NCBI GenBank assembly: GCA_050250375.1
Contig: JBFWOS010000003.1
Span: forward strand, 559,286-623,285
Origin: Candidatus Omnitrophota bacterium
Lineage (GTDB): Bacteria > Omnitrophota > Gorgyraeia > Zapsychrales > Zapsychraceae
Length of the DNA: 64,000 nt
Reading direction: 5' to 3'
Both the position numbers and the translations under genes were made by a program. The notes beneath the pieces are model-generated. The model did no database searches. It was not told the origin of the DNA and saw only the letters and a list, made by a program, of their open reading frames with translations. Each line of letters starts with the position of its first letter. Within the stretch, counting starts at the first letter, position 1. This document shows positions 10,842-60,300 of the stretch, in pieces.

Positions 10842-10850
10842 ATCTGTTAT
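10842..10850 (+). promoter_or_regulatory. Candidate extended -10 element (TGtTATAAA) upstream of the 10893 gene
   Basis: tgttataaa sits 43 nt upstream of the ATG. A GAGG Shine-Dalgarno lies 8 nt before the ATG. Confidence 0.3.
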
Positions 10851-10892
10851 AAATGAATTAGTTTTATATAACCCGGTCAACCAGAGGTCTCC

Positions 10893-11282: not shown

Positions 11283-11290
11283 CATTCCCT

Positions 11291-11701
11291 ATGCTGAATA
11301 TCCTCATAGCTGAAGATGATCCGGCTGATGCCCAGAAATTGGTTCAGGGCCTGTCCGGTGTGGCCGACTGTCATGTGACCAAAGACGGGACGGAAACAAT
11401 CGAACTTTATAAATCTTCCATCAAAGATAATTTACGGTTTGATTTTATTTTGCTGGATGTCCAGCTCCCCCGCATAAACGGTTTTGATATCTTAAAGACG
11501 ATCCGTAAGCTGGAAGAATCCCGTCAAGAAATCCCATCCAGAGAAACAAAGGTGATCATGATCACGACTTACAAAGACTCCCTGATGGAAAATTACAATA
11601 TGGGGTGGGATGATTTTATGTCAAAACCCGTCGATATCGCTATCCTAAAAACCCGCTTGAAAGAATTAAATCTGACCCGCAAAAAATCCGAACTTTCCTG
11701 A
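11291..11701 (+). CDS. Single-domain response regulator (CheY-like receiver)
   Basis: 136 aa. Receiver-domain landmarks: acidic pocket EDDPAD, phospho-acceptor Asp in ILLDVQLP, and T...K region. No output domain. Confidence 0.75.
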   Translation: MLNILIAEDDPADAQKLVQGLSGVADCHVTKDGTETIELYKSSIKDNLRFDFILLDVQLPRINGFDILKTIRKLEESRQEIPSRETKVIMITTYKDSLMENYNMGWDDFMSKPVDIAILKTRLKELNLTRKKSELS

Positions 11702-13059: not shown

Positions 13060-13061
13060 CG

Positions 13062-14042: not shown

Positions 14043-14180
14043 TCATTACTTTTACATAAGCCCGATGGTTAAGCCATAAAAAGACAAAATCTGCGTCTAT
14101 TCATAAGACCGTATTATAAATCCTTAACCAGGATTTCGTAACAGAAATATTACCATTGCTTTTGATAGATTGTTTTATAA

Positions 14181-14192
14181 CGTGCATATGCA
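14181..14192. promoter_or_regulatory. Perfect 12-bp palindrome GTGCATATGCAC in the intergenic region upstream of the rsmB/F-like gene
   Basis: Shares the GCATATGC core with a 14-bp palindrome upstream of mutS. Function unknown. Confidence 0.2.
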
Positions 14193-14213
14193 CATTAAAA
14201 ATTAAAAAATTTT

Positions 14214-39300: not shown

Positions 39301-42300
39301 GAACAACCTCTACGTCAATCGCGTTATAGTTCCGTATATCGGTATATCGTGCAAAGAATTTGGTGATTCGTACAGCGGTATAAATCAATGCTGCGGCAGA
39401 AAGGACACCTGCCAGAACAGCTAACCAGAACCATGCGGTCGTTCCGGAAGCACCCATCAGGAACGGCGTTACGGCCAGGATGACGACAGCGCGCAAAATA
39501 CGGTCACGTCGTAAAGTTTTCGCCGCCGGAGGCGCGCGGGTTTCTTTCGTTGAGACCGTTTGGTTATGTTTCTTTCTGAGACTGAGGACCTGTTTGATCA
39601 ACACAACCGGAATGGTGACAATCACGGCTAACGCCGCCACGGCCAGCCACGGGCTGTGCTCAAATCCCGGTGTAGCGGACAACCCAAGAATCACGGCCAG
39701 GATGACGCTAAACGGTGATGTCATCAGTTTGGTTGACTCCGGCGCCTGCCAATCCCGGCTGGTGATCTTATCTTTGCGACGGATGGACATCAGTTTTTGT
39801 TCAAGGACATCCTGCAATTCTTTGCTTAAAGGTTTATCATCCTTAAGGAGAAGCAAGGTATCGTAAGAAACCTGTCCGATATCCGCATCCCCGATAACCT
39901 CTCCTGTCCCGGCGTGGACGTTGATGCCCAGTTGAGTAAGAACAGAACTCAATACATACAACCAACCAGAGAAGTTAACGGCGGAGATTTCAAGCAGTGT
40001 CCCTTCTTTGCCCTTGTATGTGGCCCCGGATAATTCGATCTTTGTCAGGATGTCCGTTTGCGGGACATTAAATGAGAGTTCAATATTCGCCTGACGTTCT
40101 TTAGTTTGTGTGGCGGTTTCACCCTCGGTGGCTGTTTCTCGTTTTTCTTGCAGGATATCTTCCGGCCGTACTTCTTCATTAATCATGCGTTCGATATCGC
40201 GTTTCATATCGGCCAATAAATCTTCCCAGGCCGTGCTGATGCCGGTGCGGTGTTCAACAAAGAAGTGGTCGATGACCAGACCGGAAGGTCCAAGTCCGAC
40301 TTTGTAGTTACGGCGGGCGAATCCATACGCCAGCAGCACGACAGAAATCTTGTTTAAAATACCCGGCCGGTCTTCATCCATCGGGTCAAACCGGATGAGG
40401 ATCTCTTCCGTCTTGCCTCTGACCGGCGAAGCACTGGACGGATTACTGACTGAAATGTTGATGCGGTCGTCGTGAGAACGGTCTTGCATGACCAAACGTC
40501 TGTCCTCTTCTACTTGTCTGGCCTGTGAGGCGCTCAGCGTTTGCACAACGTAATTCCTGTCACCGATGCGTTTCAGGTCAACATCGAAGACCGGATAGTA
40601 ATCTTTCAGACGCTGCGCGATACCCTGAGGCTGCAGAACGCTCATCTCGATCATGGTAAAGACCGTCAGCAGGGCCAGGCGGATCGGATCGTTTCCTATG
40701 ACTTCCTTGAAGAATTCGGCCATATCCGCCGGATTATCACCCTTACGGATGCGGGCGATCAATGCTTTTTGGTTTTCGATCAACCAGACGATCAGCCGTG
40801 TTTCGCGGCTGAACGGCAGCATGCCCATTCTGGCCAAAACGAAATACAATCGTCCGGAGTGGAACATTCCGTCAATACCGGCCACGATGTGGACCGGAAG
40901 GAACCGGCTCAGGCCGTTGATAATCCATTCCGGTGTGTGACCGTTGGTGTGCATCAACAGGGCCAGGCGCAAAGCCCGTCTCAGGTTATGACGGGTCAGA
41001 TAATCAATGCTTGGTTCCAGTTTGGCCTGCATGTCCGCAAAGACGGCCTGATCCATATCGTGGACCATTCTCGGTTCATGGAACATCAGCGCCTCACCGC
41101 GGACAAACGTTGCGACCGTGTAATGGTCTAACGTCAGATGATGCGGCGGATCAAGGTGACGGCGGTACATCAGTTCTCCGAAACCAAAAACAATCTTGGA
41201 CAGGATATTGTTGTTGGCCTTGTCCGCAAAATATCTTAATCTCCAGACGCCGGCGGTCAACGGCGCGTTGACTTTCATGTATTGGTGGACGAATCTGAAC
41301 CGCAGCAGCATCCATGTCCACCATCCGGCGGTTTCCATTTCGCGTTCGATTCGGTCGAAGATCCCGCCTCTTAACGCGGTCGGATAATTAACGGCAACGT
41401 TGGTCAATAAGTCGAACAATCGCGGCAGATAACTGCGGCGTTTCGGCTGTTGATAATCAATCGCCAGCGCGCGTTGGTTGTCGCGGTGCTGGAATCCGTC
41501 TTCCAGCATGAGATATGTTCCGGTTCTTCTGACAACCACAATGTCGTCCGGAAGGCTGGTGTCGATGGTTTCCGGTACGACCCTCAATTCATCGGCGCCT
41601 GACAGGATGAGCCTCAACCGTCTGAACGCGAACGTAAACAAGCGGTCTTGCGCCCTTCTTAAATCTTTCAGGAATTCCGGAATGATCTCTGCCGGTGTCC
41701 CGGTATAGCCCAGTTGGGCGGCGATCAGGGCGTATTGGTCAACCCTGACCCTGGTGCGGTTGGATTTGATGTTCATTTGCCCGACGACCGCGCGGACTTT
41801 CAGCAGCAGGATGTACGCGCGCCGGGCTTTTTCCAACAGGTCGCGGTCAAACACACCTTTATTCAACAGATAATTCCAAACCGCTGCATCCGGGATGAAT
41901 TCTTCAGAAGCCAAAGCATTGGTATCGGTGTGTTCGGCGATGAAGCCCGCCAATCCGATTGAATAGATTGTCTGCAGGTCTCTTAATGAACCGTTGCCTT
42001 CCTTCAGGTTAGGCTCTTTGGTATTCAAGCCTTCGCGGAAACCGTTCTTTTGGTATCGGATCTGCCATTCCAGACGTTTAAGCTTGGCAAAAACCAGCGG
42101 ATCAACATTGTAAGCCTGTTTCAGTCCGGCGAAGACTTCCATTCTCCAGCCGTTCCAGATTGAACGATCTCCGGCCACATAACGGGTCTCAAGGATAGAA
42201 CTCGCGATCTGGACCTGGGCGAGGTTTTCCGATTCCCAGCGGATGGTTGAAGCGTTCGGAACAAATTCAACCTGTTCATTGAATACTTCCGTAACCACCA

Positions 42301-45300
42301 TGCGGACGAACCGAAGTAATTTCAACTGGCGTTCAAATTCGGCCAATACGGCTTGTTTGTCCGCATCGGATTCATCGACAAACCGTTTGATCGCTTTAAA
42401 TTGATAATCAAAGTCATAAATGGCTTCGACCTTTTCCCGTTCCCCGGCCGGAACGAACTGCATGACTTTATCATGATTTTCTTCATACCCTTTCACTTCG
42501 ATTCTCAAGTCGAGGTCTGAACCCGGGACATATTCACGGCGGGCATAACTTCCGTGGGCCATGAAGGTCACATCCCCGTCATCGCCGAATCGTTCAACCG
42601 TATAACGGTTCAATTGAATGACGATATGGTCCAGCCGGCGGGTGGTCAGGTCAGTCTTAACCTGGATCGGCAGCCGCGCGTGGTCAACCCAGATATAGTT
42701 AAATTCATATTCCCATTGTTTCTTTAAAATCTGTGCTGTTTGTTTGATCGCCTCATTGTCATCGCCGATTGCACTTAAACGAATATCGAGCGTGGTTTTG
42801 ATTCTTTCCAACCGTTCGTTCAAACGCTCTTCCAATTCTTTGACCTGCGCGGCAACTTCTTCTTCGGTGAGATTAGACTGTTCGGATTCTTCGTCTTTCT
42901 TTTTACGGAACATGAACGGCCATAACATGGCGAGTACATACGGATTGTTGGTGGTGGAAGACATGACCGTTGACGGATCCGCGCCCATCAGATAAATGGT
43001 GACGATGGCCGCTAAGACAAACGCCATGATGATAAAACTGATAAAGCCGTTTTGTTTCAGCATTTTTGCCAACTTTTTAATGCGTGAATTTTGTTTTTTG
43101 TTGCTGCCTGCAAAGAAGTATTCATCCGTATCGATCTTTGCCTTGAGGTCGTTGTGTTCCTGTTTGGCCAGGTGGGCGATCACTAAACGGTAAATGATGA
43201 ACGACTGGATCAGATCATTCTTATCAAAGAAGTTTGTATTCAGAACGATTGTGTTTCGGTCAAAGTCGATGGCGAATAAATGTCCGTTTGAATAGATCGA
43301 TGAATCCGTCAAAATAAAGGTGATTTCGCGAGGCAGATCAAATTCCGGCGGTCCGCGCGTCATCAGATCCCCGATGACATCGTTGATTTTCGCCAGGAGG
43401 ATCTCTTCGCGTTGGCTGGCCGGTTCTGATGATGTTTTTTCGTAACGGTTTTCAACCAGCCTGACTTTAAATTCGACGCTCAGGTCTGCGACCACTTGAT
43501 CCATGGTTACGTCATCGGTTTTATGACCTTCTTCACCCTTAACGCCTCTCAGCCATTGTTTGACAAAGTCGAAGAACGATGTGAATACAATCACATTATG
43601 GTTGGCCTTTTCAATAATCTTGAATTCGAATCCAAACTTGTCCGCAAAGGCTTTATTTGTTTCAACAGGCGTGACCATGTCTTGCTGGCCGACAGTGACC
43701 AGGACTTTAATACCGTTTTGCCCGATATTTTCCGCCAAGGCAATTGATTCATCCGCGTCAATTTCCAGATGGCGGTATAACCACAATGTCTCAAATCGCT
43801 GACGGAAGCTGCGTTCAGCCACGTTGGCGTGTTCGATCAGTTTATTGTATAGGTATGAATTAACTCTTAGGAATTGGACCACTTTTCTGAATCCGAGTTC
43901 CCTGAAGAAGGCCTGCATACGGACCAGGGCTTTATTCGGCAGGATGTGAAGCATCATGACCCCCCATAAAATCGGACGGAACATGGAAATTTGTCTGTAC
44001 GGCAGTGACGCGAACACAACACTGTTGATATGGCTGATCGCATCGGAAAGAATGTTCTTGAACCGGAATGACTGCAGCGTGTAGCGGTTGGTCAAAAGCG
44101 CCAGCAGGATCCGTCCGCCGAACGAATGGGCCACGATATCCATTTTATGTGTCCTGACTGAACCGGTTGTTTCATAAACATTTAAATTCACTTGTTTAAG
44201 CAGGGATTTGATCTGCCGTTTCAGCCAGGAAGATTCCTCTTCTTCAACGATTTCAAATCCGTTTTGGGCAAAATGGTTGATGACCCAGGCCAGGAATACT
44301 GTTGACCGGGCGACAATGTGGTCAATCTCAAGAATATTTCTCAGGACAACTTTTTCCTGGATGGTTAATTCCTGACCGCCGATGCTTCCGGTTTCCAGCA
44401 GTCCGCGGATAATCTTGTCGGATCTCCAGTGCTGGATAATGACGATAGTGCGCTGCGGATACAGCCTCTTCAATTCTTCCATGTTAAACGTGAGCGTATC
44501 AACGACACCATGAAGGAACAGGATCGGGCTGCCGCCGGCCTTATGGACCTGGAAGGCGTACGGCACATCGATGGTGTTGTCTGAATATGAATTGTATTGT
44601 TCTTCCTGGGTTGGCACATCTTCCACATAAGTATCCGTATGATGCCGTCCGTTACCATTGCGTCTCAGTCGGGATAAGCGTGAACCGTTACCTTTATAAG
44701 CCTCGATGACTTTTGTCAGGGCTGCCCTGGCGCCGGCCGGTCCGTGTTCCGGCAAGACAATAACGTCTTGCGGCATGCCGGCGTAAATCTTCGGTCCGAC
44801 CATAACGCGGGTGGCTTTCGGCAGGGCCGCGAACATCGGATGATCCAGTTCGCTGTCTCCGATAACCAGAATGTCTTCTTCATTAATTCGAAGATGATCC
44901 AGCAGATCGCGTACCGCGCGTCCTTTATCGGCCCGGGATACGTGCAGAGCGACGGATGACACCAGAACGTTCAGGCTGCTGAACCTTTCGTCAGCGGCCA
45001 GACGGCGACGGATGCTATCGGCCAAATGTGTGCGGAATTCAACTGTTGTATTTTCCAGCCACAACTTCAGATCAAGGGTCTGTCCTTCGAACATGACACG
45101 GTCCAGAGGCATATCATCCGGCAGAGTTCTGAGCCGCTGTCTGGCCAGATTATATTCGTAGCCGATAATGCCCATAACTTCTTCGATTTCATCATCGGTA
45201 GAAGCCAGGATATCCAGATAAATCGGAATATCGTAATCGATCTGGCCTTGACGGTTGAACCGGTAACCAATTCCGCCGTTGGCGGTATACATATATTGCA

Positions 45301-48300
45301 GGGCCATGGCTTCGGTCGTCAATCGGTCGCTGAACCTGGCTTTGGCGCGGGTGATTGTTTTGCCGGTTACCGCGGCCACCTGAACGCCAAATTGACGAAG
45401 CTGTTCGACGATTTGCACCGATTCATTGTCAAACGCGGTCTGATCATCTTCCGCGTTTCCGTGAAGCAGGGAATCATCCAGGTCGGTAATGACCAGCTTG
45501 AATTTCTTCTTCAGGCGGCGGTCGATTTCGTCGGAAGCGGCCTTCGCTTTTTGGTACTTGGATAATTCAGCGCTGTAAAGCTGTCGCAACGTTTGTTCAA
45601 TGGCTTGTGCGTAATCCACGGATACCAGATAACGTAAGGTCGCCACGGAACGGATGATCTTGCCGTCAATGTTGGCCATAACGTTCACTTCGTATTCATC
45701 TGCGACATCAACCAGTCCGCCGATATCGATCAACACAACTTTATCATCAATGATGCCGTGATTAACGAATGAAGGATCCTGGTTAATATAACCGTATCTC
45801 CTCAGCTCTTCCTGCAGGGTGATCCATTTTTGGACAAATGTGTCGATTTCGTCAAACCGTTTTTCCTTGGCCAGCAACTGTAATTTTCGGGCAAGCGTCA
45901 TTTCAACTTGTTGTTCCGCGGTCGAAACAGTGACCTTCCACGGCCAGCCGCGGACCCGAATGGTCTGCTGTCTGAACTCGTATTCAGCCGGGATAATACC
46001 TGTATCAGCCAGATTATTTTCTATGGTCCGTTCCCGTTCAAAAATCTTGTAGGCGTCTTTTTCTTCCCGGTCGATCACTTTGGCCAGGCGTGGGATTAAT
46101 CTCAGGACTCTTGTTGGGGTGACGATCAGGATCATAAACGCGACCGCCCGAATGATTCTTCTCGCCACTTGTCTGACCTTCATGGATAACGAATCCGGAC
46201 TGAATGTGTTAGCATCCACAATAATCCTGTCGTCTGACAAGAGCATTCCCCTTAATCGGAAAATGACCCATTCGGTTAAGCGGATGGCGAGCTGTTCATT
46301 GAATGACCGGAATCGTTTGATGACATACGTGCCGTTGCCGTAAACCACTTTTTCCCAGCCGGCGCCGATTCGTTTCAACGGTTTTTTCTTGAGTTCTTCA
46401 ACATCTTCTTCCGGCAAGAAGATCAGCCCTGAGGCGGCTAATGTAAGTTCTCCTGAACCATTGTTTAACAATTGGTCGGCCAGCCCGGCCAGACCCAGGA
46501 TGATCATGGCCTTCGGCGTTCCGCGCAACTTGGCGATCAGGCTTACGATAAATAAATATATTCTTAAGTACGCCGGTGGTGCCCGTAATTGAACGACTGC
46601 GTCTCTTTCGCGGACATACTGAACTTCGTTCGCCGGCCCGTAGAGCATGAAGATTGCATCCATGCCGGTGTACCTTCCGTTTTCAATCACGCCGACATTC
46701 CACTTGACGGCCCCGTTGTGTTCATGGAATCCCTGGGCTGAGGCAGGACTATAGGTGGCCAGGTATTGTATGCCTTCCCGTTCGGTTTGGTCGCGTTGAG
46801 CGAGGACTAACCCTTTGGCCAGTCCTTTGACCGGTTTTCCGTTGATCAAATAATAATCTTTTCTTTCTTTCGAGACTGTCCTGGCATCCGGCGCCCCGAG
46901 GGCAAAATTGAACCGCGCGTTAGCCGGCACATCAACGCTTCCACTCAAGGTGAACTTATTGGTCAGGCGATTGACGGATTTGAACATGCCGGAACGGATT
47001 TTCTTTGTCTGGATATGTTTGATCATGCGCGGTGATAAATATTTATCCACACTCCAGATCAACGCGCCGATAAAGTTTCGTTTTGTTTCCTTATCGATAA
47101 TTTGGGCAACAACGATGCCCTTGTTGTTATTTCTGATTGCGCTGCGTAATTGTTTCATCGTGACGGTTTCTTGCGGGGTAGTCATCCACGCGTCGTTGTG
47201 AACCTGGGTTAACTCCGCAGCTTCCGCGGTATAAGCCCAGCGATAAATCACATAGGCATCTTCACGTTCGTCAATATTGAAGAAAATCAATTCTTTGGCC
47301 GGGATGCGTCTGGCATCGCCGAATTTTTGTTCGACAAACCGCTCTAACGCAACCGGGATCACATTTCGGCGGACATAAAGCATCGGCATTTCAGTTCCGG
47401 TCTTGAGATGTTCGACCCGGGCTCTGTTGTATTGCTGGATGACTTTATCCCATGATCCCTTAATAACCTTACGGTCGACAAACATTTTCGCCAGCAGTCC
47501 GGCCAGCGCACCGCCGATAAGCGTTATGAACAATTCAATGCCGTCAAAACTGTCTCTGGCCGTTTCGGTGACACCGGATATTTCTTGAGCTTGAGCTTCG
47601 CCACCCATAAATCCGAAGGCTGTCAATGCCGCCGCGGATATACCCACGATGAACAACAGAGTGGACAACGTGGTAAACCCGCCTTCTCCCCGGTCTTTCT
47701 TCGGCCCGTCGCGCGGTTGCTGCGGTTCATGCTGATCGGTGGCCGGGGCTTCGGCGTCTTTCCTGACCGCGTTGCCCTGATCGGTCACGCTTCCTGGATT
47801 GAGTTCTTCCTGGAGCCGGATGTACAAATGCAGATATTCATTGATACTGCGGGTCCAGTCGTTATTGATTGACATTCCGTTTTCAATTAACGTTCTCCAG
47901 ATAGACGGTGCAAACTTATATGTTCCCCAGGCGCGTTCGATCGCATGGTGTAATTGATTTTTATTTTCCCCTCGGGCGATCTCATTGCCTTCTCTGTCGA
48001 GCATCCTTGACAGCCCCTTGAACACAAACCCGTTTGGTTTTGATCCGCCTTCAAACACGGTATCCGCCAGGCCGCCGGTCAGACGGACGATCGGGATCAC
48101 TCCATAACGCAAGGCGAGCATTTGAGTCAGGCCGCTCGGTTCATAATCAGACGGAACAAGCAGGACATCGGCGGCTGAATAAATATGCTGGGCGATCTCG
48201 TCCACAAATCCCTGCAGATAAACGATGGATATATTAATATTTTTCTTGCGGGCGTCTTCGGCCAGCTGGGCAAACCGTTGTTCCAATTTTGAATCGCCTG

Positions 48301-51300
48301 AACCGCCGACGATAATATCGATATCCAGCGCTTTCATCCGGCCGGCGTACATATCATCCACCATATCGGCCAGGATATCGAGCTGCTTTTGTTCAACAAG
48401 GCGGGACACGACGCCCACCAGCAGACGATCGCTGCCAGGAGTCAGGTACCCGTGTTTGGTTACTTTATCTTTCGTGACTTCCTTCACGTCACGGCCTTCC
48501 GCGAGCATTTCCTGAAGATGCTGTTTGTTTTGTGCGCGGGCTTCAAGGACGGCATCAATACCCTGCTCGATGGAATAATTCTTGAAGAACACTTTGTTGG
48601 TTGACGGATCATTCAATCTGAAGTGAATACCGTTTAATATACCCTTGAACCGTTCGCCTAATGTCTTGAGCAATGTCAACCCGCTGAATAATGTGTCGAT
48701 GACTTCTTTCAGATAACCGCGGCTGACCGTATTCACGGCATTACCCAGGGCGCTGATCTTAGTGAATGTTTGCGGGACAATACCCATCATATTGATCCGG
48801 CTTCTGTGGACGACAAGCTCCCTGACGGCCGGAAACTCTTCTAATCCGAGTTCAGGATACAAGGCCTGCGGATAAGATCCCTGGTAACCGATGTTGTGGA
48901 TCGTAAACAGATTTCCGGTGCGTTCAAAATGTTCTTTATGGATCGTACGCATGTAGAGCGACACCAGGGCTGTATGGTGATCATGGGTGTGGACAATCGC
49001 CGGTTTCAACCCGATATGTTTCATTAACTCCAAAGAGCCCCGGGATAACAGGATTGATTCATAGAAGCCGGTGCGTTCGGTCTTATAGGCTGAATCAAAG
49101 AATTCCGTCGAGTCGGCATCCAGCATGTAGACCGTGATGCCTTCAACGGTCAATTTCTTAGCCGTCAGGACGACATTTTCGTTTTCCTTGAATGGTACTT
49201 CAAAGGCGAAACCTTCGACGTCTTCGGCCCCGGCATAAGCCGGATTTACGGCCAGTTGTTTGAAGTAAGGAATGATGACCACCAGATCGTGTCCGATTTC
49301 GGCCAGGGCTTTAGGCAGTTCGTACATAACATCTCCCTGTCCGCCCTTCTTGACCAGCGGCCCGAATTCCATGGCGACCAGAGCAACTGTGCCTTTGAAG
49401 TTTTGTTGAATGGTCACACGGCCGTTTCCGTAACTGACGTCTGCCCATTCGCGTGAACCGTCTTCGTTTTCAAGGACAAACGTGTATTCGAAATTACGTT
49501 CGACGATTACCTTAACGGTGTAGTGGGCGCGGGACTCGGTGTTTTCAATAAAGGTCACCGGATGGGTATAATCTTTCCATTCTCCGTCCATATTGGAATG
49601 AAGGATAACACGGCGGGTTCCCGTTTCATCTCTGCGGTTAGCGGCAACTTCCAGTGTAACTTCTTGCCCCACTTCAACCGTCCTGAAGGCATTCACAATC
49701 TGACCTCCGGTGGTTGACCTTAAGGCCGCGATGAATTCACGTGTCCCGCGGTACATGACAACACCCAGCGGCGGAACAGTAATTTCGATGGAGTCGGCAC
49801 GGCCGTTTGAGGCGACCGGCTGTGTATTGTGTTTGTCTCTGTCAACGACATCGCTGCCGCCGTACTTGACTGAATCACTGTTAAAGACCGGTTCCCAAAG
49901 GCCGGCAAACGGCACACCTACGCGGTAATCCTGATAAACAACCGGTGTAAAGTTGGCGACAACCAGAACGACTTCATTCGGGTTTTCACTCCTGCGGATA
50001 AAGCTGAGAACCCCGCGTTCCGCGTCGTCAAAGTTGATGGCTTCGAACCCTTCCCGGCTAAAATCAAAACGGTGCAGGTTGCGGTCGTTCTTGTAAAGCC
50101 GGTTGAGGTCGCGGACCAGGGTTTGAATGCCCTGGTGCAGCGGATACTCAAGCAGATGCCATTCGAGGTCACGGTCCGGATTCCATTCCGCGGTCTGGGC
50201 CAAATCAGCGCCCATAAACAATAACTTCTTGCCAGGTGTGGCGAACATCAGCGCGTACAACAGTCTCAAGTTGGCAAAACGCTGCCATTCATCGCCCGGC
50301 ATCTTGCCGATCAGCGAACCTTTACCATGGACGACTTCGTCATGGGCCAGGGCCAGCATGAACCGTTCCGTAAATGCGTACATGCTGTAGAACGTGATGT
50401 CGTTATGGTGGAATCGTCGGTGGATCGGTTGACGGCTGAAATACTTGAGCGTATCATTCATCCAGCCCATGGCCCACTTAATGTCAAATCCAAGGGCCTT
50501 ATCACCGGACTCTATCGGCGCGGTTACACCCGGCCAATCAGTTGATTCTTCGGCGATGGTTATGATTTCCGGATATACCTGATGAGCGGTGGTGTTGAGT
50601 TGACGGATGAATCGTACCGCCTCAAGGTTTTCATTTCCGCCGTAAATGTTCGGAATCCATTGTCCTGGTTGCCGGCCGTAATTCAGATACAGCATGGATG
50701 ATACGGCATCCACGCGGATACCATCGATGTGATATTCACGCATCCAGTACATGGCGTTGCTCAACAGGAAGCTGATCACTTCGTGACGGCCGTAATTAAA
50801 GATCAACGTACCCCAATCCGGATGGTCGCTTTGGATCGGCAATTCATGAGAATAGAGTTCTGTACCGTCGAAGCGGACCAGTCCGTGCAGGTCGCGCGGG
50901 AAGTGGGCCGGGACCCAGTCGAAGAAGACACCGAAGCCGGCCTGATGCAGCTGATCGATCAAATACTTCAGATCTTCCGGCGTCCCGTATCGTGATGTCG
51001 GCGAGAAGTAATTGCTGACTTGGTAACCCCAGGACGGATAATAACTGTGCTCATAAGGAGGCAAGAACTGGACGTGGGTAAATTCCGTTTCTTGTAAATG
51101 CTTGATCAGTTCAGGAGCGAGTTCGCGATAGGTTAACGGGGCCCTTTCGCCTTCTTCTGTCGTCTTGTTCCTGAACGACCCTAAATGGAGTTCAAAAACG
51201 CTGATCGGAGCTGAACTGGCGTTTGACTGAGCCCTTCGTTCCATCCACTTGCGGTCATGCCATCGGTATTTACCTGTATCCGAGACGATGGATGATGTCC

Positions 51301-54300
51301 GGTCCGCATTGTCGCCGGTCGGGAATTCGCTTGCGAAGGCATACGGATCGGCCTTGATCCTGACCACTTTGTCCCGCCCGATAATGCGGAATTTGTAAAG
51401 GGCGCCTTCGGTGACCCGCGGCACATATATCGACCAGACGCCGGTTGATGGATCAAATCTCATGCGGCCGCCTCTGTGCTTCCAGCCGTTGAAATCACCG
51501 ATGACAGAAACGGAGCGCGCATTCGGCGCCCAGACGGCGAAGTAGGTCCCGTAGACGGTATGTTCCGTCTTGACCAGGTGAGCGCCGAGCTTATCATAAA
51601 TCTGGCTATGCGCGCCTTGCTGAACGAATAACAGTTTATCGAGGTCTCCGAACTGCAGGCCTTGCATAATCTTTAGAACGCGGGCTGATTCTTCATCCAG
51701 CTGAATGTGACCTTGTTCGACGGCCGCAGATATTTCGCTGACGGCTTCCGGACGGCTGGCGTACGTCAGAAGGCTGTCCTGAATATAATTATTCAGATAA
51801 TGTTCTTCACGGGCGCTGTTTTGTTCATGCGTCAGATCAAATTCAGCCAGGGCGCCGACTTCATGGATCAAACTGGCCGCCATCTGATTGACGGTCAGGT
51901 ATCCGAGTTCTTCATATTCCGCCGCGTTGGACAGGACGATGTATTCCTCACCGTCATAAACGTAAACAGCAGCGAGGATTCCCGTCACCGGACCGGCGCG
52001 AAGGAGTCCGGCACGGGCCATGGTTCTCAGGCGCTGGGCCATGGCTTTATAACCGTTTGCGCGCAGGTATCGATGGGCGGCGATTACGGCCGGATGATTG
52101 ATGGCCACCATTTCCAGCCGTTTGATATCTTTATCTCGTGATTGTTCAGTGGCGGTTTTAAGGAATGCGAACGCCTCTGGTGTCAACGCTTCAGCCGTTA
52201 CTCTCCATGTCCAGTTGTTTTCAACCGTACCGGGTTTATTCATCCGGGCTTCTTCATCCAGGCCGAGAATATCTTGTAACGGAACGATGGCGAGACGTGA
52301 TTTTGAATCGACAGCCATCTGGACAAAACGTTCATGAATATCTTCTTCTATATTTTCTTCCGCGAGATGTTCCGTTATTTCACGTTTCTGTTCAGCAGTA
52401 GCTTCGCGGGTATACCAGCCTACGGTGGTATTATTATCATGAGTACCGGTGTAGACCACAGAATTTTCAACGTGATTGTCCGGATGGTAACGATGATCTC
52501 CTTCAAACCCGAACTGAAGAACGTTCATGCCTGACAATTCAAATTGTTTAAGCAGGACCGTCACGTCCTCTGTAATAATCCCCAGGTCTTCAGCGATGAA
52601 CGGCAGCGATGGGAATTGTTCGCTCAGATGGCTGAAAAAGTCGGCGCCCGGCCCAGGCACCCATTCGCCAGCCAGGGCGTTTTCGGCCTTGGCCGGGATG
52701 GACCAGTAGCCGGCAAATCCGCGGAAATGATCCAGGCGGACCAGGTCGAAATAATTCAACTGCTGCTGCAGACGCATGGTCCACCAGTCGTAGTTATTTT
52801 CCTTGAGCGCATCCCAAAGGTAAACCGGGTTGCCCCAAACCTGGCCAGTGGCACTGAAGGCATCTGCCGGCGCGCCGGCGACATGAAGCGGCTGGTTGTC
52901 TTTGCCCAGATCGAAATATTCTCGGTGGGCCCAGACATCGGCGCTGTCATGGCTGACATAGATCGGCGCGTCTCCGATAAACCGGACGCCTTTCTCAGCG
53001 GCGTACGCTTTCAAGGCCCGGAATTGTTTGTAGAGCATAAACTGCACAAACATAATCTCTTCAACAGCGGCCTTATGTTGTTCCCGGTAATTGGCCAGGA
53101 TCGTTTCGTTTCTGTCTCTTAATGAATCGGTCCATTCATACCAGGCTTGCCCGTTGTTATTTTCTTTCAGGACCATGAACAACGCGTAATCTTGTAACCA
53201 ATAATTATTGTTGAACATAAAGAGTTCAAATTCACTGTTGCCGTTCTTGGCCTTGAAGCGTTCATAGGCCAGTTTGAGCAGGCCTCCCTTGAAGGCAGCA
53301 ACGGTGTTGTAATCGACCTTGGTTTCATCCGTTGTTTCAAAGGCGGCCGCTTCTTCGGCGGTCAGCAATCCTTCGGCGACCAATTTCTCGATGCTGATCA
53401 TCAGAGGATTCAAGGCGAAGGCTGAATCGCTCAGGTACGGTGAATTTAATGTTGAAACCGCGGTCGGCGTCAACGGCAGCATCTGCCAGTAACGCTGCTT
53501 GGCTCCGGCGAGAAGATCGACAAACGCGTAAGCAGCCGGTCCGAAATCACCGATGCCGTGGCGTGAAGGCAATGAGGTTACGGACAGCAGGACCCCGCTT
53601 TCTCTCGGCTGGATGATCCGTTCGACTTCGAAACGGACTGATTGTTGATCCGGCATTTCTTCTCCCGACACCGGCCGCGCAGGATCTTTGGCGGCGACGG
53701 TTTCGAATGTTCTGACCAGATATTCGAACGGACGAAGCGTGATTGTTTCTTGAGCGGTAAACGCGCTTTGCTGGCCGTTCTCAACATTGGTCCACACGCC
53801 CTGGGCATTACTTTGGCCAGAATTCCACTCTTCCGCCCAGAGGTGAAGGGTGAATTGACGGGTTTCACCGGAATAGTTGGCGATGACCAGCGCCTGTTCC
53901 TGGGCGAGGCTGCGTTGATAGGCGATCACGCCCTTCGGCAAGTCTCCGGTATGAACCGCATTTGTGTCACCTTTGCGCCATAACGCTGATTTCGTTTTAT
54001 TTAACCAGGTATCATAAAATTCCTTCTGTTCTTGATCATACGGCTCGGCTTCATGGTTTTGGGTAACATAGGTTGCGTTCGGTTTTTCGTTTGAACGGCC
54101 GCGGCGCTGGCCGGCGTTGATCATCACCATACCCGGCATGGTCATCATCAGGACAGCGGCTGCTCTTTGTTGTTCACGGTTCAATATCCTGGCGACGCGC
54201 TCGGACGGATCATCATGGTTTTCCAAGAAATGGACGGTGCGCGTTAAATATTCATTTGATGTGCGTTGCCGGTTGGTCAGGTAATCTCTTAATTCTTCAA

Positions 54301-57300
54301 CCGGGAAACGCTGTTCGACCAGGATGTCGAACACATGTTTGTCGTAGGTAAAATGAATGCCCAATCGCTGCAATGCCCCTTCGTGCTGGGCATAACCTTC
54401 GCCGATCAGGATGGCGTTGTTGTATGCACCTAAGAATTCATGCAGGAATCCAGGGATAAATTCTTCTGTTAGGATCTCATTTCCGCCTAACGGTTGTAAA
54501 TCACGGTTGATATGTTCTTTTAACAGCAGATGCGCCATATCGATTCTGGCACCGCCGCCGTTGGTGATATCCAGGATGTATTGCATTTTCGCGGCCATCT
54601 GGGCTCTTAATGCCGGGTTCGACCAGTCTAACTGGGCGGTATCGATCCATGAACCGGAGAACCCTTCTTGTCCGTGCAGAATGGCTTTCGGCCCATTTGC
54701 TGTTTGGACCATAAAGTAACGATTCGTGTATTTCTTGACATCTTCGCGGTTCTTCAAATATTCACTCAGGGTCGTGACCGGTTCATTCAATTGAGCCGCG
54801 TCGCGTGAAATGAACCATTCCGGATGGGCGATGGTCCATGGTGAATCGGCGGCCATGTGGTTCGGAACAAAGTCGACGACCACTTTCAGGCCGGCGGCGT
54901 TGGCGCGTTTGACAAATTTGCGGAACGATCTCTCCGTACCAAATTCTTCGTCGATCGTGTAATCTTTAATGCTGTACGCTGACCCGACCCGTTTTGGATC
55001 CCACATCTTGTTGAAGTCTGTTGTAAATTGTCCTCTCTTCCAGATACCCATCATCCAGATCACATTAAATCCGTCGGCTCTCATCGTTCTGAGGGTTTTA
55101 TTGTCAATTTCATCGAACCGGCGGCCTTTTTCGCGGGTATGCCATAAGAATAAATGGGCGCCTTGTGTTCTGATTTCTTCATCGAGATCAGACCCTGGTT
55201 GCGTAGCGGCCGGGAATTCCCCGCTAACCTTTCGTTCAGCCAGTTCAAAAATTCTGCGGTTATAGTCTGCGTGGACTTTGGCCGCCGCGATAATCGCCTC
55301 TTCCTTGGCCAGCCAGGCGATTTGCGCATAATCCATATCCGGCAATTGCCGTCTCAATGTTTCCATCGCCCGTTGCAGTGTCTGCGCATAAACCTTATCG
55401 ATATCAACAGCCAGCTGGAATAAGATCATTTGTTGTTCGACAGATGGTACAACCCACTTTCTCAGGCTCGGCACATAAACCCGTTTGTGTTTGGCCACAA
55501 ACAAGTTTGGCGGTGTGCGTTTGAAATGAACGGTGCGTTCCGCTTCTTCATCGATCGGGGCGACATTGATCGCGTGGAATTTAACGGCGGTGTAATCGGC
55601 ATTGACCAATCCCGCGCTGTAGATGACAGATGGTGGTGCGTTGATCTGGTTGAGTTTACCGGATGCGGTCTGATCAACGATCACGTAGAGATTATGTTGA
55701 CGCTGCAATCCTGAGGCCGGCACCTTCGGCGTCACATCACCTTCAAGCGCGGCGGCCATAATACCAGCCTTCTTCTCGCCGTTGGCCATGAAGAATGTGT
55801 TGCGGGCTTCAAAGATATCGGCCAAGCCCATGGTATAGGCGTATGGAACCCGTCGGATGTCTGCGTAGTCACTGATGTTGGAATCAATCGTGCTTTGGGT
55901 CAAGCGGATTTGTCTTATTCTTGAGCTGAATTTATTATCGGCTGAAGGTTCATTGAAGGCCAAATGTCCGTTAGCACCGATGCCTAACATCACGATGTCC
56001 GCTCCGCCCATCTGTCTCAACGTTTGCGTATATCGTCTCAGATAAACCGGAAGAATGAAGGCTGTGTAGACCGGGCTTAAGATGTATTTGGTCACAATAT
56101 ACGGGATAGATTTATATTGGTACGGATCATATTTCACATAATCTGCGACCAGATGGATATTTTCTTGCGGGATCGCGACTCTGGAGAACAGGTTCTCGTT
56201 CAAGAAATAAGCGAATGACGCTTGGTGATCCCTGGTGAGACCTCTGTATTCATCCAGATGGAACGCGTTGATGCGTGACCATTCAATTCCTTCTATCCTG
56301 GCCAGTTCGTGCAGGAATTGTTTCATCGTGTTGCCGGTGGCAAAGATAATATTGATCGTTTCTTTAACCTTTAATAATTCTTTTATCTTGGCCGCGACTT
56401 GTCCGGCGGCGCCAGGGGCGAATTGGTCAGGAGCGTACACACTTACGTTATTCGTCTTCGCGGTTTGTTCTCCGGCCATTTGTTCTTTATCCGCATGGCG
56501 AACGGCTTTGAATGCGGCTTTGGCCAGCCAGACAAACGGACCGACGAAACCGATGAAGACCAGATACCATTTATTTCTTCTTAATTGGGCATCTTTAATG
56601 AAGAACCCTTTCTTGTTCACGGCCGATGAGTAGAAGATGTTGAAGAATTGAGTAGAAATACCGTCCAAAGCCACTGCAACCGCAGATAACGCTGGATGTT
56701 GAATCATTAAGCCGCGCAGGATCGAATAGAAGCGGGTCATCCAGAACGCTTCAAATTGTTTTTCGTGGGCCTTAAGCGCTTCTTCTCTTAATTGTTCAAC
56801 ATTGCCACGGATCAGTTCAACCAGCTTGCTATAACCAAACGATCTTAAGCGAACCATCGCCCCAATGCCGACAATCTTCAGGGCAGAGATGAAGGCTGTT
56901 TCTAAATCAGCTGGCTGGTCACCAAACAGACCCGGCATCACTTGGCCGGCCGCCCAGACAATGATAGTAATAGCCAAAGTACCAAGTGCGACGAAACGGG
57001 TTGTCATAAAGAAATTCCTGATTTTGAATGTCTTGAAGAAATTGACCGTGCGGGCTTCCACCATACTTCCAACGACATAGGTCAGGCCGAGGAAGGCGCT
57101 GATCGACAAGATCAGATATCCGAGCATCACACCTTTTGGCGCGATCACGGTGAAGTAGGCCAAACTCAAGAGGCCCATCGCGAGGCCTAACGGGAAGGCG
57201 AGCACGACTTGTTTCTTGATGATGCCGTGGCCACTGATCCACTGTCCGGTGAGGTCGGTGGCGGCCATAAAGATACCGAAGACGATGATATTGGCCACCG

Positions 57301-60300
57301 GAACGGCCACCACGCTGGTCAACAACGCGAACAGATATCCGTAGGTCAACAAGGCCAGGCCGGAGATCGCCGCCACGCTGATCAACGCCTTCACCAGGAC
57401 GCCGTTTCTCGGACGGGAAACTGGCCGTTCGTTCGTTGTTTTACGGACCGGCTCATCCGGCATCATGGCCAGCGGGGCCAATCCGTTCTCAATGACACCG
57501 GCGCGGCCGATGAACAGCGGTTCGATGAACCTGAATGAATCGGCCGGAACGATTTTGTTAACAGCCAGATGCTCCAGGAACAGCGCGGCGTTGAATACAT
57601 GCATGGTCGGTTCGCCGCTTAGATTGGATACTTGGTCGGCCGGGATCGCTTCGCGCATCTTCTCGATTTCCTGATCGGTATCGATAAATATGCGATGGCG
57701 CCGTCCGCGGGCGATCTCATAGGTGATCCAGGCCGGATCAGCCACGGCGCTGTAAACCTTAGGCTGTTTCAGGCCGTTCAATTCTTCTTTCTTAAGGATC
57801 AGGTAAGCGATATCAAATGAATAACGTAATAATTTTTGTTTGTCTTCGTTGCTAAAGCTTGACTTCAACACGTTTTGTTCGACCCTCTTGTTCAACCGTT
57901 TTAATTCTTTACGGTTAAGATCTCTGTCTTCCTTGATGAAGCTCAAAATTTGAGCCGGAACAACCCAGGCAAATCCGACTTCCGGAACAAAATTCCATTT
58001 AAACGCGGTCTTGACCGGAAGTTTGTAGGCAAAATGGTAGAACAACAGGATCGGTGAACGGATCAACCCGACCACAAACGATGAAACAAGATATGAAATA
58101 ACTGCGGCTGCCGCTGTAAAGAAGATGTTTCCGCCGGATAAGCTGAAATAGACGTAAGCCGTTGATGTTGAAACGCCCAGGATCTTGACCGTTTCGGTCA
58201 CGACTTTTGAGGCCAACAATGTATAGAACATGGCCCAGTAGCCGTTGATTTGTTTTTGGGTCAGACGGCCGCTCGCCAGGGCGCGGTGTGAAGCGAATAT
58301 CAGCAGTTTACGCAGGCTGTTGACTTTTACGGTCACGGACTTCTGGGCTGCCCGGCTGCCGGCGCGGGCCATCAGGAACATACCCCATACGGCCAGGAAC
58401 AGGACGAATTCAGCGATCCCCTGTCCGAATTTGTTTAAGGTGGAGGCAACGCCGCGAACTTCAGTTTCCGATTCCCCAATCGTTTTAACTTTAGTTTCAT
58501 GTGTTAATGAACGGGCGCTGCCTCCAACAGGTTGTATTTCTGAAATTATTTCTTGAGAGTCTACAGGGGTGATGCCGACAACTTCGGTTTCCGATTCCCC
58601 AATCGTTTTAACTTTAGTTTCATTTGTTAATGAACGGGCATCACCCCTGTTAGATTTTGTGGAGACAGCACCTTCAACTTTTGCTCCCGATTCCCCAATC
58701 GTAACTTTAGTTTCTGTTAATGAACGGGTGCTGTCTCCAATATGTTGTGTTCCTGTTTGAACTTCTGGTGAAATTACAGGGGTGATGCCGGCATCTTCAG
58801 TTTTCGATTCCCCAATCGTTTTAACTTTAGTTTCATTTGTTAATGAACGGGCATCACCCCTGTTAGATTTTGCGGAGACAGCACCCTGGTCTTCAGTTTC
58901 CGATTCCCCAATCGTAACTTTAGTTTCTGTGAACGAACGACGGGCGCTGTCTCCGACATGAGCTGCATCTCCTTGGAGATACATATCGGTCAATATTCTT
59001 AATTGGTCTGATGTTAATTGCGGATAGTTTGGTTCAATGTCGGCCTGAGGATTGACGCTGAGTCTTTCGGCCGTGAGAGCTTTTTGTCTGTCCTGGGCGG
59101 CGATTTGTGCGTTGATTTGTTCTGACACATCGCGGCCTTCTTCTTCCAGGCGGATCATATCGACGAAGAATGGAATCATGATGACTGGGTCATAGGCTTC
59201 CCAGCTGCCGTTGTTTTCACCGGTACGGCTGTATCTGAATCCGACATGGATATGGTCTTCAATCGGCCGGCCGTTTAAGCGGTCTGCGGCATTACCGGTG
59301 ACGCCTGAATGACCAACGACTTGGCCGAGTTCGACCTGTTCTTGCTGTTTGACATCGGATTTTGTTAAATGACTGAACTCGACGCGGATCCAGATACCGG
59401 CGACTTTGCGGTCAACAAAGACGACCAGCCCGTCTCTGCTTGTCTCGACTTTAAGGATTTGACCTTCCCAAGGCGTTCTGACCGGGGTATTGCGCGGCGT
59501 CAAGAAATCAACCCCACGATGATAATCGCTGTTTAATCTGAACGCGCCGAAATAATTGTACGGACGGATCAACCGTTTGATGACATCTTCAGGTTTTTCC
59601 ACCGCTTGAACGTCGGTTGCATCCATATTCGCCTGCTCAACGGTGTTAACTTGACCGACGGCCCGAAGGGAAAGAACGAGCAGAACGATAAACAACACGG
59701 CCGCGAGTATCACAGAGACCAGGCGTCTTGTCGGTGTTCCGGCTTTTCGGGCTGTTTGTTCCGCGGCGAACAGTTCAGTGACGGTGCGGTCAATCGGACG
59801 GTTATAGTCAAGCGCGCCAAGATTGATCACGATAAACAGTGTTTGATATTTTTTACCCTGATGTTCTTCGTCAATCGTAATGAATCGGTAAGCGTCCCGG
59901 CCTTCTTTGGCTAAAAGATCAAGCACTCTGGTCTGGAATTCCATGCCGCGGGAAGACACATTTCGATTAATGACGGTGTCGATCCCTTTGTTAAACAACC
60001 ACTGCAGCGTTATGCGGTAGGCTTCAACGGAATATTGTTCACGGATCAATTTTGATGAGCTGGTGGAAACGACGGCCGGTTTGCTCTTGCCCCTGAAGAA
60101 CACCCCGATATTCAAGTCGCCGGTTGTCTGGTTTTCACGATCACGTAAATCAAGCAGGATATGTGTCTCTTCCCGTGAGGTGCCGCGGACGTTGAGTCGG
60201 GCGATCTTGCCATCGAGGACGGTTCCGGCGAACATTTCTTCATAAACGGTGTCGGATTTTTGCTGATCGGTCAGGTCTAGATCGACCAATACGACCAGGC

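Follow-up and report, generated by a model that had tools for sequence, protein, structure and literature searches.

A probable glycogen-metabolism module in a giant multi-enzyme protein of an Omnitrophota-related bacterium

The minus strand of the window (the whole 64,000-nucleotide stretch of DNA that was analysed) encodes a giant protein. Its ORF runs open off the window edge, with no stop in its final 24 nt, and the N-terminus lies outside the window. This 42.6-kb ORF is predicted to specify one polypeptide of more than 14,000 residues in an Omnitrophota-related bacterium. The span 44700-55230 corresponds to aa 2916-6426. A hydropathy scan marks ~19 TM-like hydrophobic segments, clustered, along the ORF, and GT1, nucleotidyltransferase and peptidase M23 domains occur on it besides GT5 and HAD. 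The features are as follows, with residues numbered on the giant ORF.

21362..63976, minus strand: giant ORF of at least 14,204 aa (single stop only)
55694..56431, minus strand: NagB/6-phosphogluconolactonase-like sugar-phosphate isomerase, aa 2516-2761 (Pfam Glucosamine_iso, 69.9 bits)
53717..55129, minus strand: GH13 alpha-amylase-family catalytic domain and C-domain, aa 2950-3420 (Pfam Alpha-amylase, 119.7 bits)
54812..54874, minus strand: region I and the motif DFVPNHMAADSPWTIAHPEWF, aa 3035-3055 (located by sequence)
52172..53656, minus strand: GH77 4-alpha-glucanotransferase (MalQ), aa 3441-3935 (Pfam Glyco_hydro_77, 562.8 bits)
49742..51634, minus strand: GlgB 1,4-alpha-glucan branching enzyme, aa 4115-4745 (NF003811, 901.9 bits, cut-off 741)
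49391..49726, minus strand: linker of ~110 aa, beta-rich, putatively CBM-like in sequence, aa 4751-4862
47807..49387, minus strand: GT5 glycogen/starch synthase (GlgA-type), aa 4864-5390 (Pfam Glyco_transf_5, 134.6 bits, and Glycos_transf_1)
47477..47671, minus strand: pair of TM-like helices, both hydrophobic, at aa 5436-5458 and aa 5482-5500 (hydropathy scan)
46577..47479, minus strand: ~300-aa domain without a family match, aa 5500-5800
45545..46420, minus strand: minimal protein-kinase-like domain resembling RIO, from a family without annotation, aa 5853-6144
44687..45502, minus strand: HAD-IIB (Cof/SPP-type) phosphatase, aa 6159-6430 (Pfam Hydrolase_3, 45.7 bits, cut-off 20.9)

The domains share a single reading frame, and their catalytic motifs are intact. 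The order is NagB/Pgl-like, GH13, GH77 MalQ, GlgB and GT5 GlgA-type, then a probable two-helix membrane hairpin, the ~300-aa domain, the RIO-like kinase domain and the HAD-IIB phosphatase. A preliminary description had placed its domains in the same polypeptide, and the uninterrupted minus-strand ORF bears this out; all sequence features that it named were located where it had put them. The MutS adjoining the giant gene shares 59% identity with a Candidatus Omnitrophota MAG and at most 44% with all other genomes. Since even this nearest Omnitrophota MutS reaches just 59%, the lineage is a distant one.

It is very improbable that the 42.6-kb ORF arose as an artefact of assembly or sequence, or that it is a series of genes only seeming to be fused. 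Its nearest relative, P0142, stops after 2,522 aa with its domains ordered differently, the Omnitrophota MAG with the nearest MutS has a mutL with no giant gene next to it, and scans with the kinase-HAD stretch as query gave no locus coding for a relative. However, 14,204 stop-free codons at ~50% GC are not attainable by chance, one frame holds all domains, and P0142 itself runs open at the 5' end of its contig. Such giant ORFs are also documented in complete long-read Omnitrophota genomes (10.64898/2026.06.07.730766).

Several domains belong to glycogen enzymes. MalQ exceeds the cut-off of NF011080 (630.6 bits, cut-off 477). GlgB, whose presence in the same protein had been proposed earlier and holds, also passes TIGR01515 (808 bits, cut-off 464) and has a CBM48, GH13 and Alpha-amylase_C architecture (Pfam CBM_48 and Alpha-amylase_C matched). 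The GlgA domain carries the motifs KKGGQGDV and EPSGLTQ and would be nucleotide-sugar dependent by family assignment. In combination, MalQ, GlgB and GlgA indicate glycogen metabolism by the classical GlgA/GlgB route. GlgA is clear in Pfam, but its score falls just short of its NCBIfam cut-off (TIGR02095, 308.6 bits, cut-off 328.45) and the KxGGL motif reads KKGGQ, both of which count against reading the region as a glycogen module. Neither the protein nor the window yielded a domain of GlgC (ADP-glucose pyrophosphorylase), phosphorylase or phosphoglucomutase; the pathway is therefore incomplete here, which is further evidence against that reading. NCBIfam models match the NagB-like domain below their own cut-offs. 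The linker has no Pfam match, and its one weak PDB match is 8jn0, a fragment of an alpha-amylase (E 0.3).

The GH13 domain has an intact catalytic triad (D3146, E3193, D3255) and intact conserved sequence regions. Directly after region I sits DFVPNHMAADSPWTIAHPEWF, which is not a chance occurrence because it is a conserved family signature: NHx..D..W/L...HPE[YFW]F is present in ~33 of the 45 closest homologues checked. The nearest homologues, at 33-36% identity, form an uncharacterised clade of proteins of ~470 aa and ~820 aa. The best PDB matches are 4gkl and 3dhu, in the sequence search as well as with the family profile (168 and 136 bits, top-ranked). Both are GH13_48 maltogenic amylases, from Thermotoga neapolitana (AmyB) and Lactobacillus plantarum, respectively (PMC11239784). 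They match across the whole catalytic domain, share the NH...D...HPEWF stretch after region I and, like the window's copy, have a CSR-VII ending in GQ. The hallmark Cys before the nucleophile (RCD) is present in the closest homologues of the domain, whereas Ile replaces it in the window's copy (ARIDMAH). Domain B spans ~80 residues versus ~30-40, and the domain is embedded in a giant protein in contrast to the stand-alone enzymes of ~420 aa. The identity of just 33-36%, the Ile and the long domain B were likewise counted against the glycogen-module reading. From its sequence, the domain is amylase-type, related to GH13_48 maltogenic amylases and predicted to be catalytically intact.

With region I to HPEWF alone as query, the matches are Thermotoga maritima maltodextrin glycosyltransferase (1gju, 20.4 bits, E 0.004) and GlgE (18.5 bits, E ~0.015), both maltosyl-transferring enzymes. 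The domain could accordingly be a glucan- or maltosyltransferase acting on unphosphorylated maltooligosaccharides, like the T. maritima maltosyltransferase, which would remodel the glucan jointly with MalQ and GlgB. Its surroundings of transferases (MalQ, GlgB, GlgA) and a closest clade without characterised members are consistent with this. We consider it unlikely, as 4gkl AmyB is by far the nearest relative of solved structure, and both it and 3dhu have been described as maltogenic amylases (PMC11239784).

The preliminary description went further and suggested that a GlgE-type maltosyltransferase and a maltokinase, together with GlgB, might form a TreS-Mak-GlgE-GlgB (maltose-1-phosphate) route fused into one protein. 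The resemblance to GlgE (GH13_3; PDB 3ZSS, 5VSJ, 4U33) is genuine: HPEWF follows region I, an H-x-x-(N/D)-P loop and a GF..(S/T)Y(T/N) stretch after region III are present, and the family profile gives GlgE 87 bits, more than TreS and oligo-1,6-glucosidases. A kinase fold and GlgB also occur on the same protein. The GlgE alignment is confined to beta1-beta3, the first third of the barrel, and scores far below GH13_48; HPEWF is common to GH13_48, the Thermotoga maltosyltransferase and GlgE and is therefore not diagnostic of GlgE. Clustering of the GH13 domain with amylases, named in the preliminary description as counter-evidence, is what the 4GKL and 3DHU scores indicate. The Pfam search of the giant protein found no GlgE N/S domain. 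The residues that bind the phosphate of maltose-1-phosphate in GlgE (N352, K355, Y357 and N395; PMC4526890) are all replaced, by E3104, G/S, W3110 and M3147; none of the four positions is basic and that of N352 is acidic. TreS is absent (TIGR02456, 48 bits, cut-off 678), there is no Mak partner, and the GT5 GlgA synthase already provides the classical elongation activity. The fused route is largely refuted already, and we regard it as hardly credible.

Between GlgA and the kinase-like domain, the two TM-like helices probably form a membrane hairpin. The ~300-aa domain that follows has no sequence match in Pfam, NCBIfam or the PDB, and its single-sequence AF2 model is unusable (pLDDT 35.9).

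The kinase-like domain was expected 2.8 kb downstream of HPEWF; it lies ~2,820 residues (~8.5 kb) away, at the aa ~5850-6110 also given for it. A protein-kinase-like fold, whose absence had been named as grounds against the earlier proposal, is present. The domain has a Gly-loop (GAGWEKVVYG, aa 5871-5880), a beta3 Lys (VIKRF, K5887), catalytic-loop residues D6067 and N6072 and a metal-binding D6084, with NHGIIDDKVVLIDIGG spanning aa 6072-6087. These motifs are not due to chance because they occupy conserved positions when 12 sequences of the family are aligned. A sub-threshold profile match brings alphaE, the catalytic loop and DxG into register with the kinase TTK.

In structure the domain is closest to kinases of the RIO/AceK type and not to MTRK, APH or Mak. 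As in Rio1, Rio2, RIOK3, Bud32/PRPK and AceK, the C-lobe is truncated to ~60 residues after DxG, a disordered insertion separates beta3 from the alphaC-equivalent helix, and the G-loop, Lys, D....N and DxG residues are canonical. Unlike them, the domain has a three-helix insertion of ~100 aa that includes a strongly hydrophobic helix. The earlier assignment to a maltokinase/APH-like kinase thus survives as regards the fold and fails as regards identity. No APH or Mak model matches the domain, and mycobacterial Mak/Pep2 shares only the broad fold superfamily; the domain lacks the N-terminal cap subdomain, the HGD and DFE motifs and the Gly-free P-loop of Mak (PMC4306142), as well as the large helical C-lobe bearing the maltose pocket.

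None of the 12 family members matches the Pfam models RIO1, Pkinase, APH or Kdo at the sequence level. Members are stand-alone proteins of ~300 aa or modules in proteins of 0.7-6.4 thousand aa, and their genomic context gave no functional clue. The family, unannotated in databases, is the only moderately new element of the region. The catalytic-loop Asp occurs in 7 of the 12, which was also counted against the glycogen-module reading, and the beta3 Lys in 10. Both gaps would fit a pseudokinase or a nucleotide-binding scaffold/ATPase, which is largely what RIO and Bud32 are, in place of a sugar or protein phosphotransferase; this seems improbable given that the window's copy has all canonical residues and the metal-binding Asp is invariant across the family.

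The HAD domain contains all four motifs (DLDDS, TGK, KG and GDSELD, aa 6165-6378) and, at 34.6 bits, exceeds the Pfam S6PP cut-off; TIGR01484 gives 41.2 versus 41.8 bits. It had been described as an OtsB-like HAD-IIB phosphatase: the HAD-IIB domain is intact, and it does not resemble OtsB specifically (PF02358, 12.6 bits versus 27).

Taken together, aa 2916-6426 probably constitute a classical glycogen-metabolism module within a giant membrane-tethered multi-enzyme protein. The module would serve classical glycogen (alpha-1,4/1,6-glucan) metabolism. We infer that the glycogen enzymes may work jointly on one glucan kept near the membrane, and that the kinase/phosphatase pair may regulate them or process a sugar phosphate; the analysis found no pointer to maltose as a substrate of this pair.

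Giant multi-enzyme proteins with starch-synthase domains have already been described in Omnitrophota ('Archaeovorin'-type or 'multi-enzyme metabolic cluster'; West-Roberts et al. 2023, 10.1101/2023.11.21.568195; 10.64898/2026.06.07.730766). According to these surveys, TM-anchored giants of Omnitrophota commonly have sugar-metabolism modules and GT5 domains termed 'glycogen synthase'. The passages that a term search retrieved from them mention GT5/GT1 and phosphoglucomutase modules, and neither a contiguous GH13-MalQ-GlgB-GlgA block nor the kinase-like family. Dockerin or repeat scaffolds were not seen in the window. The giant resembles the described proteins in that its single ORF exceeds 10,000 aa, with scattered TM helices and a tiling of many unrelated enzyme domains (GT5 starch/glycogen synthase, GT1, HAD, nucleotidyltransferase, peptidase M23); its housekeeping neighbour, MutS, is nearest an Omnitrophota MAG. 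Fused relatives also occur: P0142 shares 66% identity over MalQ and GlgB and has a NagB-like domain, P0143 combines MalQ with GlgA, and P0144-P0150 combine MalQ with GlgB. An Omnitrophota protein with a hexokinase-MalQ fusion was found as well.

The region most probably encodes a classical glycogen toolkit within a giant polypeptide. The minus strand carries a single stop-free ORF of 14,204 codons that runs from 63976 down to 21362, and since there is no stop in the 24 nt between the ORF and the window edge, the protein is longer than 14,204 aa. An alternative genetic code can be ruled out as the cause of this length: translated with table 11, reassigned codons would show up as stops, and the ORF has none. 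Residue i starts at nt 63976-3(i-1), so the region 44700-55230 corresponds to aa 2916-6426.

Features of the giant ORF (residue numbers of the giant protein; nucleotide positions are those of the window).
aa 1485-1583 (-): peptidase M23
aa 2516-2761 (-): NagB/6-phosphogluconolactonase-like domain
aa 2950-3420 (-): GH13 domain
aa 3441-3935 (-): GH77 MalQ (NF011080, 630.6 bits against a cut-off of 477)
aa 4115-4745 (-): GlgB (NF003811, 901.9 bits against a cut-off of 741)
aa 4864-5390 (-): GT5/GT1 GlgA-type synthase (Pfam Glyco_transf_5, 134.6 bits against 22.7; TIGR02095, 308.6, marginally under 328.45)
aa 5436-5500 (-): TM hairpin
aa 5500-5800, 46577-47479 (-): domain of ~300 aa between the TM hairpin and the kinase-like domain, without Pfam, NCBIfam or PDB match
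aa 5853-6144 (-): kinase-like domain
aa 6159-6430 (-): HAD-IIB domain
aa 6612-6796 (-): alpha/beta hydrolase
aa 7108-7445, 41642-42655 (-): nucleotidyltransferase (Pol-beta type) and GlnD-like uridylyltransferase, after the HAD domain and the alpha/beta hydrolase
aa 9634-9861 (-): PLP-dependent enzyme

GlgB, which the preliminary description had placed in this protein, and MalQ both pass curated cut-offs. GlgA is clear by Pfam and falls just under the TIGR02095 cut-off. The adjoining GH13 amylase, MalQ, GlgB and GlgA would together provide elongation, branching, disproportionation and trimming of glycogen, all predicted to be fused within one membrane-tethered polypeptide. GlgC, phosphorylase and phosphoglucomutase were not found in the giant protein or the window, and thus the window alone does not encode the full pathway. 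A hydropathy scan identified ~19 strongly hydrophobic TM-like segments that cluster along the giant protein (aa 1415-1444, 1951-2347, 5436-5500, 6975-7000, 8108-8204, 9158-9185 and 9926-10202). The C-terminal ~4,300 residues (aa ~9860-14204; 21365-34393 (-)) have no credible Pfam domain; the sole Pfam match there, to MRPL52, covers 17 residues and is spurious.

Relatives of the module carry partial fusions. The closest is P0142, a protein on a contig of 8386 nt (L081, JGI 3300045319) that is 66% identical over MalQ and GlgB. It ends ~2,500 aa past the start of MalQ, and its ORF is open at the 5' end of the contig. The NagB-like domain follows GlgB in P0142, whereas it precedes GH13 in the window, which indicates domain shuffling between related genes. 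A second relative, P0143, joins MalQ to GlgA. MalQ and GlgB occur together in several proteins of ~1,150 aa, and an Omnitrophota protein combines a hexokinase with MalQ. The linker between GlgB and GlgA (aa 4751-4862; 49391-49726 (-)) reads like a beta-sandwich carbohydrate-binding module. Its sole PDB match is weak (8jn0, an 89-aa alpha-amylase fragment, E 0.3).

The preliminary description had instead seen hints of a TreS-Mak-GlgE-GlgB route via maltose-1-phosphate (M1P) fused into this protein. To our knowledge, this route is not known in the phylum, and the reading, if true, would make this the first fused maltose-1-phosphate pathway. All the features it listed occur where it placed them, with a single slip in the distance to the kinase-like segment; the pathway idea as a whole is not supported.

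The GH13 domain has intact catalytic regions: region I (VVVDFVPNH), region II (GARIDMAH, with D3146), region III (with E3193) and region IV (FLENHDD). The motif noticed after region I, DFVPNHMAADSPWTIAHPEWF, is found at aa 3035-3055 and ends in HPEWF (aa 3051-3055). The signature NHM.(.)DS.W...HPE[YFW]F is kept in most of the 45 closest GH13 homologues checked, which makes the motif a feature of the family. Searched alone, the motif region matches in the PDB, in order, 4gkl (AmyB of Thermotoga neapolitana), 3dhu (a Lactobacillus plantarum amylase), 1gju (maltodextrin glycosyltransferase of T. maritima), the sucrose hydrolase entries 6lga/6lgg and GlgE (E ~0.015). The resemblance to the GlgE pattern is thus genuine, but the pattern is not diagnostic of GlgE because it is common to 4gkl, 3dhu and 1gju too. 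HPEWF, shared by GH13_48 amylases and the Thermotoga maltosyltransferase, is unsuitable as a GlgE marker.

Searches with the whole domain point to amylases. Among 5.8 billion sequences, the nearest proteins are 33-36% identical members of the 'alpha-amylase family' of ~470 or ~820 aa, with a PF00128 domain only, from Elusimicrobia, Acidobacteriota, Polyangia and others. A single-sequence PDB search ranked 4gkl first (80 bits) and 3dhu next (49 bits), and GlgE was not among the best 60 matches. A profile of 25 family sequences matched 4gkl over the whole domain (168 bits), 3dhu (136 bits) and then ordinary alpha-amylases. GlgE reached 87 bits with this profile in a single stretch (profile 36-146) that extends from beta1 to just past HPEWF, and trehalose synthase appeared once among the 60 matches listed, at 66 bits. 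NCBIfam is uninformative on GlgE, as a genuine GlgE segment matches no GlgE model there.

GlgE holds the M1P phosphate via N352, K355, Y357 and N395 (Streptomyces coelicolor GlgEI numbering; PMC4526890). Segment 320-450 of S. coelicolor GlgEI from the PDB was aligned with the GH13 family; the loop alignment is somewhat uncertain, and it places E3104, G3108 (or S3107) and W3110 at the first three positions. The equivalent of N395 is M3147, directly after the nucleophile D3146, as placed by the canonical GH13 region II register (R-x-D) and not by the MAFFT alignment. None of the phosphate ligands is conserved, and the acidic residue at the N352 position argues against an anionic donor. We also looked for PF11896 (Pfam GlgE_dom_N_S), which we take to represent the N-terminal domains N and S ahead of the GlgE barrel. 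No such domain came up when aa 1-5000 were scanned against Pfam with E<=0.01, and the 190 aa ahead of the barrel have no match at all. We conclude that the domain is most probably not of the GlgE type: GH13_48 structures outscore GlgE, the phosphate ligands are replaced and no N/S domain was detected. The TreS part of the proposal is not supported either. On the GH13 domain, the TIGR02456 treS_nterm model reaches 48 bits where its cut-off is 678, and there is no other TreS-like domain in the giant protein.

The closest solved relatives of the domain, ranked first in both single-sequence and profile searches, belong to GH13_48, a recently defined subfamily of maltogenic amylases with 4gkl and 3dhu as type members (PMC11239784). 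The window copy retains the GQ ending of CSR-VII (NAGQ, aa 3287-3290, aligned with HQGQ of the family). In contrast, GH13_48 proteins have a hallmark Cys before the nucleophile where the window copy has Ile3145 (ARIDMAH), though its homologues read VRCDMA. Domain B also differs, with ~30-40 residues in GH13_48 and ~80 in the window copy, from region I (3040) to the helix after WIDTAQLDW (3118), a length nearer that quoted for GH13_38 (PMC11239784). In view of the Ile for Cys and the long domain B, yet with the GQ kept, we call the domain GH13_48-related and leave its subfamily unassigned. It belongs to an uncharacterised clade that shares with GlgE the beta3-loop architecture but lacks the GlgE phosphate site.

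For the kinase-like segment, a distance of ~2.8 kb from the GH13 motif had been given; it lies ~2,820 residues (~8.5 kb) downstream. Its motifs are as proposed, with a Gly-rich loop (GAGWEKVVYG, 5871-5880), the Lys of VIKRF (K5887) and NHGIIDDKVVLIDIGG at 6072-6087. The segment had no match in a word-indexed protein search or in PDB phmmer, and none in Pfam or NCBIfam at E<=10. An exhaustive HMMER search of 1.84 billion cluster representatives recovered 21 relatives with 25-37% identity, some of which are stand-alone proteins of ~300 aa and others modules in proteins of 0.7-6.4 thousand aa, partly giant. For 12 family members compared with the Pfam kinase models there was likewise no match, even with E up to 10. 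In an alignment of these 12 sequences, the Gly-loop G and the D of DxG are invariant, the beta3 Lys and the catalytic-loop Asn are each present in 10 and the catalytic Asp in seven. The window copy retains all five. The 'HG..D' noted earlier, which would correspond to the HGD of maltokinase, is not conserved in the family; the actual catalytic loop is D6067....N6072.

A confident AlphaFold2 model built with the family alignment (pLDDT 85.3, pTM 0.80) runs from beta1-3 through a ~100-residue helical insertion, which includes a disordered loop, to beta4-5 and alphaD/E; the catalytic loop and DxG come next, and then no more than two helices. The best 50 Foldseek matches are all kinases, including WNG1, AceK, Rio1/2, LegK7 and Bud32/PRPK, at E values of 1.5e-3 or weaker. 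A sub-threshold profile match to the kinase TTK keeps the register across alphaE, the catalytic loop and DxG. The suggestion of a maltokinase/APH-like kinase therefore holds for the protein-kinase-like fold, as seen in the model and by Foldseek, but not for maltokinase. Mycobacterial maltokinase (Mak/Pep2) is recognised by HGD and DFE motifs, a P-loop free of Gly, a structure like MTRK/APH and a cap subdomain at the N-terminus that is unique to it (PMC4306142). The window domain shares the protein-kinase-like (ELK) fold but has NQDPSFVN, LIDIGG and the Gly-rich loop in place of HGD, DFE and the Gly-free P-loop. Its core begins ~15 residues past a hydrophobic linker without a cap, and its nearest structures are not MTRK and aminoglycoside phosphotransferases. 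Mak is associated or fused with TreS (GH13_16), whereas the giant protein has no TreS. The modelled structure thus confirms a kinase fold, not a maltokinase, for a family without annotation.

All four HAD motifs are present in the domain that follows the kinase-like one: DLDDS (6165-6169), TGK (6204-6206), K6351 and GDSELD (6373-6378). Hydrolase_3 (45.7 against 20.9) and S6PP (34.6 against 20.3) score above their cut-offs and TIGR01484 just under (41.2 vs 41.8). Among phosphatases, the domain comes closest to the Cof-type, sucrose-phosphate, phosphoglycolate and mannosyl-3-phosphoglycerate enzymes. Its description as an OtsB-like HAD-IIB phosphatase is correct for HAD-IIB and not for OtsB: PF02358 scores 12.6 vs 27, T6PP_C 16.3 vs 26.7 and the bifunctional OtsA/B model 23.6 vs 634. 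The GlgE route requires no phosphatase. The kinase/HAD pair may regulate the glycogen module or act on a sugar phosphate.

The genomic settings of the kinase family offer no pointer to sugars. Fusion partners include GT4, rhomboid, MutS-V/HATPase, GNAT/methyltransferase and cytidylate kinase domains, and Pfam scans of the larger homologues found no recurrent partner. Stand-alone copies occur on contigs mostly <2 kb or beside unrelated genes, and the one long contig with such a copy has no sugar genes. Scans of genome and metagenome contigs with kinase plus HAD, or with the aa 5500-5800 domain plus kinase plus HAD, found no locus encoding a relative. The aa 5500-5800 domain itself has no PDB sequence match and no paralogue within the giant protein, and its single-sequence AlphaFold model is unusable (pLDDT 35.9). 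A 6,420-aa homologue on a 47.5 kb contig (L084, Logan SRR22388038) combines the kinase-like domain with GT4, NagB-like, Pol-beta nucleotidyltransferase and acyltransferase domains. Its gene sits between genes of 4,478 and 4,374 aa, which together make a cluster of giant genes. The Pol-beta nucleotidyltransferase and the kinase-like domain co-occur in both this homologue and the window giant protein.

The RIO-like family could comprise new carbohydrate/glycoconjugate kinases or could regulate glucan enzymes in cis, in either case as a speciality of giant multi-enzyme proteins, and form with the GH13 clade a variant membrane-tethered 'glucan factory', a reading that we consider improbable. It draws on the position beside HAD-IIB and the fused glycogen module here and, elsewhere, on GT4 fusions or giants with glycosyltransferase, NagB-like and nucleotidyltransferase domains. 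As a small protein-kinase-like family (21 of 1.84 billion cluster representatives) unmatched by Pfam and NCBIfam, it is a reasonable target for curation and biochemistry. The remaining interest of the region lies in this family, the GH13 clade and the segments aa 4751-4862 and aa 5500-5800.

Two preprints on giant Omnitrophota proteins name the GT5 'glycogen synthase' as the second commonest domain and report a 'sugar-metabolism module' in TM-anchored multi-enzyme giants (10.1101/2023.11.21.568195; 10.64898/2026.06.07.730766). Such proteins have ORFs of >10,000 aa, TM anchors and varied enzyme domains, and the window ORF shows the same length, TM clusters and tiling. The window protein is probably a new member of this class, an already known kind of object. 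It is a clear example of how Omnitrophota-related giant proteins concatenate amylase, MalQ, GlgB and GlgA in one membrane-tethered polypeptide, in agreement with the published surveys. By gene content, the window is linked to Omnitrophota through one neighbouring gene, MutS, which is 59% identical to that of a Candidatus Omnitrophota MAG and at most 44% to every other genome found. In that MAG, mutL is not flanked by a giant gene.

Apart from the giant ORF, the window carries ordinary bacterial housekeeping and envelope genes (MutS, MutL, RNase PH, RdgB/Ham1, RsmB, a secretin and an amidase). Two antisense ORFs inside the region, 45026-45565 (+) of 179 aa and 52544-53122 (+) of 192 aa, are most likely spurious. 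The GC content of the giant ORF is 0.46-0.56 and climbs toward its 5' end; that of the flanking housekeeping genes is 0.41-0.47.
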